From contig CAURER010000006.1 in assembly GCA_963523795.1 (NCBI GenBank), positions 218-64,217 of the forward strand: a DNA stretch of 64,000 nucleotides. Reading direction: 5' to 3'. The translations under genes were made by a program, and so were the position numbers. Numbering within the stretch: the first letter of the stretch is position 1; each line of letters opens with the position of its first letter. Under the pieces are notes generated by a model, which made no database searches, had not been told where the DNA came from, and saw only the letters and a program-made list of their open reading frames with translations. Source of the DNA: an uncultured Granulicatella sp. Lineage in GTDB: Bacteria > Bacillota > Bacilli > Lactobacillales > Aerococcaceae. Positions 38,645 to 48,715 of this stretch are shown here, one piece after another.

Positions 38645-38742
38645 TGCAGCGAATGCGAATACACTACCGCAAAGAATTCTCTTTTTCGTCCAATCGGCAA
38701 CATCCCATCCGTTTGGCACTTAACGCAATGTATTCTACTCTG
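38645..38742 (-). promoter_or_regulatory. THF (tetrahydrofolate) riboswitch
   Basis: Minus strand: CAGAGUAGAAUACAUUGCGUUAAGUGCCAAACGGAUGGGAUGUUGCCGAUUGGACGAAAAAGAGAAUUCUUUGCGGUAGUGUAUUCGCAUUCGCUG. It shares the conserved blocks GAGUAG, GCGUUAAGUG, AUGGGAUGU, ACGAA, GCGGU and CGCAUUCGCU with the folT-motif consensus. Downstream, CUCUUU can pair with the SD AAAGGAG. Confidence 0.85.
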
Positions 38743-38895
38743 ATTTGTTTTGGCTTGTCTCTTAAATTGACAAAACCTTTTCCATGCACTCCTTTCTACC
38801 AGAAAATAGCATACCTGTTTTTATATCTGTCGTCAATGAAACTGATACTTCCCTCCATTCAAACTTCTACAATCAATCATTTTTTCTAAAGGGAA

Positions 38896-44222: not shown

Positions 44223-44310
44223 TACCATGGAATAAAGCAAAAGGAGATGATATAATCATTAATGCTGAAGCCAAACCTTCCGCAAGTCTATGCGAAAGGA
44301 GGTGGAGCAA

Positions 44311-44403
44311 GTGCACTACATTTTCGACGTCTTACTTGCTATTGTGGCAGAAGTAACAGCACATTACATTTGCAAGTGGTTAGATAGCAAGGACAAAGGC
44401 TAA
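44311..44403 (+). CDS. Type I toxin, Fst/PepA1-like small hydrophobic peptide (30 aa)
   Basis: GTG start 6 nt after SD AGGAGGTG. Peptide is (M)HYIFDVLLAIVAEVTAHYICKWLDSKDKG: a hydrophobic helix followed by a W-L-D-x-K-D-K charged tail, as in Fst/PepA1. An in-frame ATG at 44290 would add 7 charged residues. Confidence 0.75.
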   Translation: MHYIFDVLLAIVAEVTAHYICKWLDSKDKG

Positions 44404-44420
44404 AGCTAACCCATCACCGA

Positions 44421-44488
44421 CAAAAAAGCCCCTAGGGAACTGACATTTCCTTAGGGGCTTCGGTGTGCTTGCGCACTACATTTTCGTA
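44421..44488 (-). ncRNA. Antitoxin RNA (RNA II-like) of the type I TA locus
   Basis: Minus-strand promoter TTGACA (comp. 44517-44522), 17 nt, TACAAT (comp. 44494-44499) with a TG extension. The 5' region CGAAAAUGUAGUGC (comp. 44473-44486) is complementary to the toxin start-codon region 44313-44326. Ends at the shared hairpin 44426-44460 plus U6. Confidence 0.7.
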
Positions 44489-44795: not shown

Positions 44796-45197
44796 ATGAA
44801 AAAATTATTAGCTTTAGCCTTATTAACATTATCTTTAGGAGCATGCGCACAACCAGCAACACCTACCAAACAATCAACTCAAGAAACAACAACTACCGCA
44901 AAAGTAGAACAAACGATTACAGTAAATGTTAAAAAAGATGGGGAACCAATTTCAGGTAGCCCATTTACCTTAACATTCAAAGATGGCGATAAATTGTTAA
45001 CTGTCATGAAAGAACAAATGCAAATCGTTGAAAAAGATGGATTCGTATCTGCAATTAACGGAATCGAACAAGAACCTGCGAACCAAAAATATTGGTTATT
45101 TGATGTCAACGGAGAAATGAGCCAAGTCGGAGCTAACCAAGTTGACTTAAAACAAGGCGACGTGATCGATTGGAAATTAGAAGCATTTAAACAATAA
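44796..45197 (+). CDS. DUF4430 domain lipoprotein
   Basis: 133 aa. Lipobox LSLGAC. C-terminal WLFDVNGEMSQVGANQVDLKQGDVIDW is typical of DUF4430, from memory. SD AGGAGGA. Confidence 0.7.
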   Translation: MKKLLALALLTLSLGACAQPATPTKQSTQETTTTAKVEQTITVNVKKDGEPISGSPFTLTFKDGDKLLTVMKEQMQIVEKDGFVSAINGIEQEPANQKYWLFDVNGEMSQVGANQVDLKQGDVIDWKLEAFKQ

Positions 45198-45736
45198 TGA
45201 AAAATACAGCTATTTTTTCAATCCGAAAAATCACACTGGTCGCATTACTATCAACCTTAGCATATATTGGTAGATTGCTATTTGCATGGATCCCAAATGT
45301 CCAACCAGTGACGGCTATTCTATTAATAATCACCCTCGAAATGGGATTGGTTGAAGGGATTCTAACGGCTAGTTTATCCATGATTTTGTCGAATATCTTT
45401 TTAGGCATGGGGCCTTGGACCTTGTATCAAATTGCAAGTTTTGCGATTGTCATTCTTGTATTCTCTTGTTTGAAACCTTTATGGAGACGGACTTGGAAAC
45501 ACCCCTTATTAAAATTAGCCTTTTTTACAATGATGGCTGGTTTGACGGGATATTTGTATGGATTTGTCATTTCAATCTTTTCTGTATATTTTTATCATAT
45601 CCCTAAATTTTGGGTATATTACTTACAAGGATTGCCGTTTGATACGTTACATGCTTTTGGAAATATTGGCTTTTGGATTATTTTATCTCCATTATTGCCA
45701 CGTATTATTCAAAAATATCAACATAAATTTCAATAA
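45197..45736 (+). CDS. ECF-transporter S-component-like membrane protein (substrate unknown)
   Basis: 179 aa, 5-6 TM. ATG overlaps the DUF4430 stop (TAATG). Confidence 0.6.
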   Translation: MKNTAIFSIRKITLVALLSTLAYIGRLLFAWIPNVQPVTAILLIITLEMGLVEGILTASLSMILSNIFLGMGPWTLYQIASFAIVILVFSCLKPLWRRTWKHPLLKLAFFTMMAGLTGYLYGFVISIFSVYFYHIPKFWVYYLQGLPFDTLHAFGNIGFWIILSPLLPRIIQKYQHKFQ

Positions 45737-47326: not shown

Positions 47327-47457
47327 ACTAACTCCTCTAATGTTCAATAACGTTATTGTACCATTCCTTTTCTTTTTTTCAAAAAGTATGGCTTTGAGAT
47401 AATAGTTCCTTTTTTTAATTTCTCATCACTCTACAAAATTAGAATAAATATTATTCG

Positions 47458-47478
47458 GGACATTTTTACTTGTGTTTA
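47458..47478 (-). repeat. Repeat copy 3, inverted (GGGACATTTTTACTTGTGTTT)
   Basis: Exact reverse complement of 44197-44217. Confidence 0.9.
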
Positions 47479-47543
47479 ATTAGGACATAATCACTTGGGT
47501 TGGCGAAGTTTGCAATTCATTTTGTTTTTGGTATAATGAAGAT

Positions 47544-47665
47544 ACAAAAAGAGCCAAGCTCCAACTCGACTCTGATGTAGACCGTTGAAAAGACGGTAGC
47601 TGAATTACGATATTATAAAATAACACCGCTAACTCTGCCAAAGTTATGAGCGGTATTATTTTTTC
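47544..47665 (+). ncRNA. Candidate orphan sRNA (approx. 120 nt), class unknown
   Basis: Promoter TTGCAA (47510-47515), 16 nt, TG-extended TATAAT (47532-47537). No ORF on either strand. ACCGU/ACGGU hairpin. Terminator ACCGCU/AGCGGU with flanking pairs (47619-47657) plus a T-run at 47658-47665. Confidence 0.5.
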
Positions 47666-47718
47666 GTTAGTAATTCTATTACTTTGACAATCATGGATTT
47701 TACAAGTACAATATAAAC

Positions 47719-47908
47719 AAATTAAAAATTACTTGTGGGCTAGTGGATATGGTCTGCACCCGCCTGTGGGCTCATCAATCAATTTAACTATTTGATGAGA
47801 AAAAAAATAACAGGACTGCCTACCCTTGAGGAATAGATAGGGCATATCTAGCGTGAGGTGAAACTCAATACGTGGAAGAGAAGGGTGCAGATGCGCCCTT
47901 CTTTTTTT
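47719..47908 (+). ncRNA. Structured approx. 190-nt RNA/leader ending in an intrinsic terminator, upstream of the orphan 211-aa ORF
   Basis: Promoter TTGACA (47684-47689), 17 nt, TACAAT (47707-47712). Hairpins at 47771-47778/47792-47799 and 47834-47839/47845-47850. Terminator stem 47880-47888/47893-47901 plus T7. UCUGCACCC (47753-47761) is exactly complementary to the 5' terminator arm GGGUGCAGA (47883-47891). Confidence 0.55.
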
Positions 47909-47929
47909 ATATTTTAGGAGAAGATTCAA

Positions 47930-48565
47930 ATGACATATACTTTGGAATGGATTAAAAATTTTAATGGAAATATCAATATTCATAACGTTAATATGTCTTG
48001 CTTAGCCAATGTGATTGAGACATATGTTTCACAGTACAAGTATGTTTATCTAACAAATATGATAGACTATCCTGAAATAATTCTCTCTGTTCCTAACTCG
48101 TCCATTCCTCATCTATTAGGATTATCAAGAGAACATCATGTGAATTTACCATCAAATAATGCAGGAAGCATTTTTGAAGGTTTAAAAGATGATTGGACAC
48201 TAGAACGTTTGCAAAAAGCGGATAATGGGTGGTTTAATGAAAACAAGTTCAAAATTATTGGAACTCTATTACTTTACCAAATGTTGCATTTAATCCAATG
48301 TAAATTCTACACAACAAATAATATTTTAAACAAAGAAGTTGGCAAACGATTTAGAAGAGATAATATTTATTTTGTAGTTTTCAAATTAAATAACGAGATA
48401 AGTTATACCGTTGAATTATCACGTGAGCAAGGAAATCTTTACTTCCCAAGAAGTCTTAAAATCAATGATAACTCTATCAAAAATTGTAAGGAAATAAAAT
48501 TACAACTCGTTGACAAGAAACGTTTCAAACCTACGAAAGCAAGAAAAGTTAACTGGTCTTCTTAA
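47930..48565 (+). CDS. Orphan basic 211-aa protein, no family recognised (candidate toxin/effector)
   Basis: SD AGGAG 9 nt before the ATG. AT-rich coding sequence. Lys/Arg-rich C-terminus. The SIPHLLGLSREHH segment faintly recalls phage BECR-fold nuclease (PBECR) motifs, an impression only. Confidence 0.6.
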   Translation: MTYTLEWIKNFNGNINIHNVNMSCLANVIETYVSQYKYVYLTNMIDYPEIILSVPNSSIPHLLGLSREHHVNLPSNNAGSIFEGLKDDWTLERLQKADNGWFNENKFKIIGTLLLYQMLHLIQCKFYTTNNILNKEVGKRFRRDNIYFVVFKLNNEISYTVELSREQGNLYFPRSLKINDNSIKNCKEIKLQLVDKKRFKPTKARKVNWSS

Positions 48566-48715
48566 AAAAATATTAGAAAAAAACTACTTCCATTTCTTCC
48601 ACATATTACATCTACCACTGACCAACACGCGGGTTATAAACGATCGAGTTATAACCTTTAGTCCTTCGCATAATTGCGGGGGATTTTTTTACAAACCACA
48701 ACAAATCCCTCACCA

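Follow-up and report, generated by a model that had tools for sequence, protein, structure and literature searches.

What is a long, strongly structured RNA doing directly in front of a single small gene? The question is raised by a locus in a 64,000-nt stretch of DNA (the window) from an uncultured Granulicatella sp. (contig CAURER010000006.1, positions 218 to 64,217), in which a leader of about 190 nt precedes an open reading frame (ORF) of 211 codons; all positions given below are those of the window. A first-pass annotation, made from the sequence alone, had described the leader as a riboswitch or a protein/RNA-dependent attenuator of no recognised class, in which terminator, antiterminator and anti-antiterminator pairings would exclude one another. 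We compared the leader and its gene with their homologs in other bacteria and found that the structured RNA with its own promoter and terminator is real and conserved. On the evidence of covariation, and whatever its function, this RNA with its five helices and two pseudoknots forms a new structured class that is well supported and has no counterpart in Rfam. Regarding its function, we favour a reading in which the RNA would be the antidote to a nuclease encoded by the gene, in a toxin-antitoxin (TA) or abortive-infection module.

A leader with its own promoter, terminator and conserved fold

The homologous loci came from species-representative genomes (35), metagenomes (61), one viral contig, contigs of distant homologs and 15 plasmid records, three of which were fetched. 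The promoter described before was found again, and from its position transcription would start near 47719-47721. By sequence inspection, the other loci have a near-consensus TTGACA-17-TAnnnT promoter in the equivalent position. A promoter scan of the window gave no further promoter-like site on the + strand within 47713-47929, and hence none between the terminator and the gene. The G+C content is 0.46 over 47750-47899 and 0.25-0.35 in the flanks, which bears out the enrichment noticed earlier, and the 192-nt transcript is predicted to fold more stably than its shuffled versions (z = -3.3).

The terminator in front of the Shine-Dalgarno (SD) sequence of the ORF is also real, and its complete stem is longer than the one first drawn (Table 1); it would end a free RNA of about 190 nt. 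A strong terminator stands right behind the last helix of the RNA, P5, in all 24 representatives, the stem sequences being unrelated between loci. In these representatives the RNA core ends 1-3 nt upstream of the intrinsic terminator, and the SD follows within a few bases after it.

Table 1. Coordinates of the cassette and of its parts in the window
Feature	Position	Strand	Description
Whole cassette, unit of horizontal transfer	47684-48574	+	blastn homology to Streptococcus loci confined to this span
SigA/sigma-70-type promoter	47684-47712	+	-35 TTGACA 47684-89, spacer 17 nt, -10 TACAAT 47707-12; 11 of 12 matches
Conserved structured RNA core, P1-P5 and two pseudoknots	47731-47877	+	~145 nt; match of covariance model R1, 154 bits, E 3.7e-37
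P1 hairpin	47734-41 with 47751-58	+	9-nt loop AGUGGAUAU; 99.5% of cells pair; 4 of 8 pairs compensatory
PK1 pseudoknot	47746-50 with 47844-48	+	P1 loop (GAUAU) with AUAUC; 99% of cells pair
PK2 pseudoknot	47759-61 with 47768-70	+	CCC with GGG; brackets the 5' strand of P2; 100% of cells pair; 2 of 3 pairs compensatory
P2	47763-67 with 47810-14	+	CCUGU with ACAGG; encloses P3 and the A-rich joiner 47800-47809; 5 of 5 pairs compensatory
P3 variable hairpin	47771-78 with 47792-99	+	8 bp in the window; 5 of 6 counted pairs covary
P4	47823-26 with 47839-42	+	CCCU with AGGG; 12-nt loop with near-invariant GAGG 47828-31; 3 of 4 pairs covary
P5	47851-54 with 47870-73, 47855-57 with 47864-66	+	loop GUGAAA; 96-100% of cells pair (two alignments)
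Intrinsic terminator	47874-47908	+	15-bp stem 47874-47907, loop AGAU, T7 47902-47908; directly after P5
Shine-Dalgarno AGGAG	47916-47920	+	9 nt upstream of ATG 47930
211-aa ORF, stand-alone PBECR4-family protein, putative toxin	47930-48565	+	PF18813 via homologs

The RNA resembles none of the families that were searched. Rfam 15 gave no relevant match for it, either in the whole window at the gathering thresholds or in 47340-48000 at E<=10, and this agrees with the earlier statement that no known riboswitch class is present; the weak matches to OmrA-B, the L20 leader and RT-16 were discarded as chance ones. The abiF motif (RF03085) did not match 47340-48000 even at E<=10, and ARAGORN found neither a tRNA nor a tmRNA. 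Tandem Repeats Finder, at a minimum score of 30, gave no array in the RNA, in which the sole direct repeat is an 8-mer present in two copies. Furthermore, we met in the literature no prior description of this RNA or of an RNA partner for PBECR4, the family of the downstream protein, within a coverage that is incomplete and leaves room for an earlier description elsewhere.

The fold was derived with RNAalifold on a plain MAFFT alignment (A2), together with inspection of the divergent members. A second alignment, of 31 distinct rows, was made with a covariance model that does not include the two pseudoknots, PK1 and PK2. On A2, 97.3% of the 905 cells are standard pairs and 26 of the 38 pairs show changes on both sides; on the covariance-model alignment 97.7% of the cells are paired and compensatory changes occur in 25 of the 38 pairs, these changes stemming from a handful of divergent lineages and representing a modest number of independent events. 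The observed pairing values on A2 were reached by none of 500 shuffles, and when the partners were slid by 1-3 columns 28-45% of the cells paired (27-46% over the two alignments). The comparison of the upstream regions of the homologs is strongly positive for conserved structure. A previous hand model, with a GCUA/UAGC extension of a long-range helix and a CAGG/CCUG hairpin in locus L043, was dropped after RNAalifold revealed P1.

Regarding the individual elements, the strands UGUGGGCU/GGUCUGCA of P1 are replaced by UACGAAUU/AAUUUGUA in L. lactis and by GUCGGCCU/AGGUUGAC in L043. The P1 loop takes part in PK1, where GAUAU/AUAUC changes to ACUAA/UUAGU or to ACUG/CAGU; four of its five pairs covary on the MAFFT alignment and three of the five on the covariance-model alignment, which was not fitted to PK1. 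PK2, with three bp only, is the weakest element of the fold, and reads CUC/GAG in L050 and CUG/CGG in L043 and L106. For P2 we found the variants CCUAC/GUAGG, CUCAG/CUGAG, CCUUG/CAAGG and CCUGA/UCAGG. P3, which had already been noticed as an 8-bp hairpin, differs between loci in sequence as well as in length (about 14 to 45 nt). The variants of P4 are CUCC/GGAG, CCCC/GGGG and UCUCCU/AGGAGG, and in P5 the outer pairs GCGU/ACGU become GAGG/CCUC or GCGA/UCGU, while the inner ones, GAG/CUC, become UGG/CCA or CGG/CCG.

No conserved switch and a single constant partner

A covarying RNA in the leader of a gene invites a reading as a riboswitch or ligand-sensing attenuator: the fold would be the aptamer for a small molecule, conceivably a nucleotide linked to stress or phage, which on binding would alter the read-through into the nuclease gene. 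The compact arrangement of several helices and two pseudoknots, the near-invariant loop and junction nucleotides, the covariation, the position in a 5' leader, with 1-3 nt between the RNA and an intrinsic terminator, and the lack of a match to any known class are all consistent with it. Nevertheless, no conserved antiterminator or expression platform was found in 21 representatives. The antiterminator proposed in the first-pass annotation, a perfect 9-nt complement between 47753-61 and 47883-91, is present in the sequence, but its role is not conserved: the complement occurs in 2 of 42 unique homologous RNAs, both of the Granulicatella lineage, and the other 40 have at most 5 nt. It is restricted to this lineage because the terminator stem varies freely, whereas UCUGCACCC stays constant as part of P1 and PK2. 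The duplex energies between the terminator arms and the upstream RNA in the 21 representatives did not exceed those of shuffled arms (z from -2.0 to +2.2), nor did the pairings fall at consistent sites.

The other pairings of the proposed switch did not fare better. GUGGG/CCCGC, which was thought to lock the antiterminator strand, shows no covariation or compensation at all and is broken in the divergent loci L043 and L106; in L. lactis the first GGG is changed to GAA and the change is compensated in P1 rather than in CCC. The two copies of UGUGGGCU (47734-41 and 47765-72) do exist, but the pairing of the second copy with GCCUAC holds in just 73% of the cells. Finally, the 6-bp hairpin at 47834-50 is lost precisely where covariation joins its 3' arm to the loop of P1, as part of PK1, the pseudoknot that takes its place. 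The logic of terminator, antiterminator and anti-antiterminator is thus unsupported: there is no conserved competing pairing, and the conserved fold differs from the one that had been drawn.

There is one more hairpin to be considered, between the 3' strand of P1 and the second UGUGGGCU copy (47751-58 with 47765-72), which is incompatible with P1, P2 and PK2. Pairing is possible in 93% of the cells, which makes it a candidate alternative structure in favour of a riboswitch; against this, it shows little covariation, and in L. lactis nearly all of its pairs would be G-U. The hairpin may serve as a switch, arise as an intermediate during folding, or be a by-product.

The company that the RNA keeps bears on the same question. 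A covariance model (R1) was built from 24 representatives, and it gave a single match per locus; with nhmmer, 105 of the 118 sources (117 loci and the window) contained a single copy of the RNA, which in each case lay immediately 5' of the gene and in its orientation. Neither nhmmer nor the covariance model revealed an orphan copy in the rest of the window or in some 0.7 Mb of flanks, and pattern scans of viral contigs gave no further genuine copies. The linkage also persists over long distances: R1 matches of about 100 bits precede a protein of Listeria booriae with 43% identity and another protein with 32%, and the one-to-one relation holds even where protein identity is down to 32-43% (L122, L121, L043, L106). 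The hosts are Granulicatella, Streptococcus, Gemella, Lactococcus, Enterococcus, Lactobacillus, Lactiplantibacillus, Leuconostoc, Apilactobacillus and Listeria; the protein of a Granulicatella metagenome-assembled genome is 99% identical to the window protein. A toxin-like nuclease gene located on mobile elements is the only partner of the RNA, which never accompanies metabolic or transport genes, and therefore a TA-type partnership is suggested rather than a metabolite riboswitch. We consider the riboswitch reading unlikely; of the two terms used before, 'protein/RNA-dependent attenuator' comes nearer, and the metabolite riboswitch is the less favoured one.

All 92 intact genes at the loci examined are accompanied by the RNA. 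At least 14 frameshifted or truncated genes retain the RNA, and all 12 RNA-less loci have truncated or frameshifted genes. In one of them, from an oral Streptococcus (L028), a deletion joins the promoter, at its -35 box, to codon 41. In two others from oral streptococci (L032/L033) a short hairpin leader of another kind, equipped with its own promoter, stands in place of the RNA, and the gene contains several frameshifts. In L107/L108 only residues 120-211 are left, beside unrelated sequence, and in the remaining ones, again from oral streptococci (L109-L113, L116, L117), the RNA has been deleted and about 72 codons remain.

These counts are also relevant to an autoregulatory leader acting in cis only, in which the PBECR4 protein would bind or cleave its own leader, as happens with ribosomal-protein leaders, and the free RNA would be no antitoxin. 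The exclusive linkage fits such a leader, as does the fact that the divergence of the RNA follows that of the protein, and the RNA is located in the leader of the sole transcript able to encode the protein. However, the strong terminator should release most of the RNA as a separate molecule, and the loci that keep an intact RNA beside a dead gene are difficult to reconcile with a purely cis-acting role. We regard this explanation as improbable.

To the same degree improbable, in our opinion, is that the RNA is a cofactor, scaffold or guide, that is, a required subunit of an active ribonucleoprotein nuclease, so that the complex would be the effector and not an inhibited enzyme. The RNA is more conserved than the protein: the identity of the RNA core is 98% where that of the gene DNA is about 80%, and 88% where that of the gene is about 67% (52% for the protein). 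This conservation and the strict linkage would suit a cofactor, and the literature ties the RNA-associated AbiF to the ancestry of the RNA-guided Cas13. On the other hand, we found no variable single-stranded 'guide' segment, since the sole variable part, P3, is a closed hairpin; the excess of RNA that the terminator would enforce suits inhibition over stoichiometric assembly, and frequent pseudogenes of the protein with the RNA kept suit a toxin.

Lastly, the own promoter and terminator might belong to an independent base-pairing small RNA, exerting a type I-like antisense control on the toxin message or acting on other targets, and merely adjoining the gene. Nevertheless, RNA and gene share a strand without overlapping, the RNA was never found away from the gene, and in 19 representatives its core has no excess complementarity to the translation-initiation region (mean z = +0.56). 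Antisense control of the toxin start region was discarded for this lack of signal, and the whole explanation appears highly improbable.

A nuclease-like protein on mobile elements

The assignment of the protein comes from its homologs, several of which carry precomputed matches to PF18813 (PBECR4, 'phage-Barnase-EndoU-ColicinE5/D-RelE like nuclease 4'); when they were rescanned, 31 of 46 aligned homologs matched at E<=0.01, the best at 3e-9. PBECR domains have been described as predicted metal-independent RNases of phages and conjugative elements, solo versions being noted in the part of that work that concerns them (PMC5512222). The AlphaFold2 model of the 211-aa protein has a pLDDT of 95 and a pTM of 0.90, and its C-terminal half consists of a helix (136-143) followed by antiparallel strands (146-154, 157-167, 170-178 and 187-198). 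The BECR core has been described as a helix followed by a four-stranded antiparallel sheet (bioRxiv 10.64898/2026.08.28.747851), and the modelled topology is consistent with it. The invariant residues of the protein alignment include H61, H69, K86, R143, D144 and E162. The family as a whole is predicted to consist of metal-independent RNases with the BECR fold that serve in genetic conflicts.

Searching for relatives of the structure, Foldseek against BFVD gave two unnamed viral proteins and nothing else; the sequence matches in the PDB, mostly haemagglutinin at E about 0.05, were treated as noise. The family is small, with 67 representatives at 50% identity among 1.84 billion proteins. A sister subfamily (P0170-P0195 in alignment A5) is formed by stand-alone proteins of ~200 aa with the motifs SQLPHLMGLQHW and ELRE, at E values from 1e-25 to 1e-10. 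As regards PBECR4 genes on other elements, one of them, on plasmid_2 of the vancomycin-resistant E. faecium strain E8202, was reported to be upregulated on human colonic epithelium and presumed to have a role in plasmid maintenance (PMC11134301).

The cassette moves between bacteria. The homology between the window and the Streptococcus loci begins at the -35 box and stops nine bases past the stop codon; therefore the promoter, the RNA, the terminator and the gene are transferred together. The gene is present on 15 plasmids, 11 of them from Lactococcus. On a 9.97-kb plasmid the cassette adjoins MazEF, and the neighbours on plasmids also include AbiEii, recombinases and insertion sequence elements. 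Elsewhere it is found next to Rep_trans, FtsK and NikA of integrative elements, and next to ArdC, TrbL, integrases, a resolvase and AAA_15 with Mrr. These contexts (plasmids, integrative and conjugative elements, islands) are mobile and rich in TA systems. A phage origin was rejected, the gene having no match in a collection of 50,697 phage records and being found in a single IMG/VR contig.

The DNA upstream of the cassette in the window has some peculiarities of its own. At 47534-47622 there is a match to the antitoxin RNA family RatA (RF01776) below the threshold (46.3 bits, gathering score 49, E 2.6e-5). It lies within an element on the + strand (47509-47665) with its own promoter (47509-37) and, by eye, a hairpin and T-run near 47627-47665 that the terminator scan did not list. 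On the - strand of the same region, a promoter (47641..47612) and a terminator (47573..47550) would give a short antisense transcript, and no convincing txpA-like toxin ORF was found. The element may be a remnant or a variant of a type I TA system beside the cassette. Just upstream of it, at 47397-47458, two related Granulicatella contigs (L001 1581-2370 and L104 1709-2517) hold about 0.8 kb of extra DNA; this is a variable spot in the intergenic island that separates a thioesterase gene from glmM.

Two further RNA elements were recorded in the window, far from the cassette. One is a tetrahydrofolate (THF) riboswitch on the - strand (38645-38744), a full-length match of 88 bits. The other is a match to the Streptococcus small RNA family SpF66 (RF02442) on the + strand (44272-44469; 45 bits, gathering score 42), and downstream of it lie genes for a lipoprotein and for a membrane protein (44796-45736).

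The favoured reading and the systems it resembles

With slightly more conviction than doubt, we read the cassette, by analogy, as a type III-like TA or abortive-infection module. The starting point is what was observed at these loci: a promoter, a conserved fold, a terminator that is always present and has no conserved competitor for its arms, a strictly linked gene, and mobility. In such a module the strong constitutive promoter would produce the ~145-nt RNA, with its five helices locked by two pseudoknots in a fold that covariation backs, and the strong terminator behind it would halt most of the transcripts and thereby supply an abundant free RNA of ~190 nt. The minority of transcripts reading through would be the sole available message for the PBECR4 protein. 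As in ToxIN and AbiF/RCd22, the RNA would bind and neutralise the nuclease, and the terminator would set the excess of RNA over toxin. If transcription stopped or the element was lost, under phage attack or after plasmid loss, the RNA would not be replenished, the nuclease would be freed and the cell would probably be arrested.

Several points weigh against this reading, besides the differences from the type III systems that are given below. The abundance of the free RNA, the RNase activity and toxicity of the protein, its binding and neutralisation by the RNA, and the efficiency of termination are all inferred. The window protein itself has no match in Pfam (E<=0.1), PADLOC, NCBIfam or PHROGs, and its probable PBECR4 membership rests on transitive homology; Foldseek found no significant neighbour of the predicted RNase fold among the solved structures of the PDB. 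Furthermore, in Pfam, PADLOC, NCBIfam and PHROG there is no relation to ToxN/AbiQ, CptN, TenpN or Abi_2. The co-occurrence pattern supports the TA model and is not decisive, because the losses of the RNA are only about three independent events and because the missing intact RNA-less genes could reflect the decay of the gene after it lost its sole promoter. Finally, a double-pseudoknot fold with invariant loops also resembles an aptamer that binds a ligand.

The last point leads to a combined possibility, which we hold to be quite unlikely, namely that the RNA is both antidote and sensor: the fold would sequester the BECR-fold RNase, and remodelling driven by a cue would release or induce the toxin. 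The cue could be a protein, a small molecule derived from phage or stress, or an exchange between P1 and the alternative hairpin in which the second UGUGGGCU copy takes part. If true, the RNA would be an antitoxin gated by a ligand, and the first example of a new class of RNA.

If the type III-like reading is true, the cassettes constitute a previously unrecognised family of RNA-protein TA or abortive-infection modules. It would follow that RNA antitoxins need not be tandem repeats, and that type III searches based on repeats would miss loci of this kind. Stand-alone PBECR4 proteins, now annotated as 'hypothetical', would receive their first functional partner and a testable role. This would also be of practical interest, since the carriers include dairy Lactococcus plasmids, where abortive infection matters for phage resistance, as well as S. 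pneumoniae, S. agalactiae, S. suis, S. thermophilus and oral streptococci.

How does the cassette compare with the systems that are already known? PBECR domains have been described in polyvalent proteins, in a work whose passage on these domains mentions no RNA partner (PMC5512222); here, in contrast, the putative nuclease is a stand-alone protein of ~211 aa with a dedicated RNA, and unlike the domains of the polyvalent proteins of phages and conjugative elements, its gene is without a match in the phage genome collection. With the riboswitches that terminate transcription the cassette shares a conserved, covarying and pseudoknotted leader directly upstream of an intrinsic terminator and an ORF. 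However, there is no conserved competition between terminator and antiterminator here, and the sole partner is one toxin-like gene family.

The likeness to AbiF/RCd22 of C. difficile is closer. The order of the parts is the same, that is, a SigA promoter, a structured non-coding RNA, a Rho-independent terminator, no internal promoter, a ribosome-binding site and the toxin (PMC12373285). In that system, which has been proven by experiment, most transcripts end at the terminator, the RNA neutralises the toxin in cis, and RCd22 also neutralises AbiF in trans by direct binding (PMC12373285). Nevertheless, RCd22 has two 36-nt hairpin motifs (RF03085), whereas here we have a single large fold without a match to RF03085, and the HEPN (Abi_2) protein of that system is replaced here by a BECR/PBECR4 one, with no Abi_2 domain.

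Regarding the type III systems, their loci consist of a constitutive promoter, an antitoxic pseudoknotted RNA, an intrinsic terminator and a promoterless gene for a toxin endoRNase (PMC3401426). As in ToxIN, AbiQ-antiQ, CptIN and TenpIN, the promoter of the cassette is upstream of the RNA and a terminator separates the RNA from the gene, and the location on plasmids and mobile elements, Lactococcus plasmids included, is also alike. The RNAs of the type III systems are arrays of 34-45-nt tandem repeats, though, whereas the RNA of the cassette is one ~145-nt double-pseudoknot fold, and their toxins are ToxN/AbiQ, CptN and TenpN, whereas here the protein is of the PBECR4 family. Type III systems are also characterised by an RNA that binds and inhibits the endoRNase, by processing of this RNA by the toxin, and by cyclic RNA-protein assemblies. 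There being no tandem repeats and the protein being unrelated to the known toxins, membership in the known type III families therefore fails. By analogy, the cassette would work like the type III and AbiF systems, yet it belongs to none of them.

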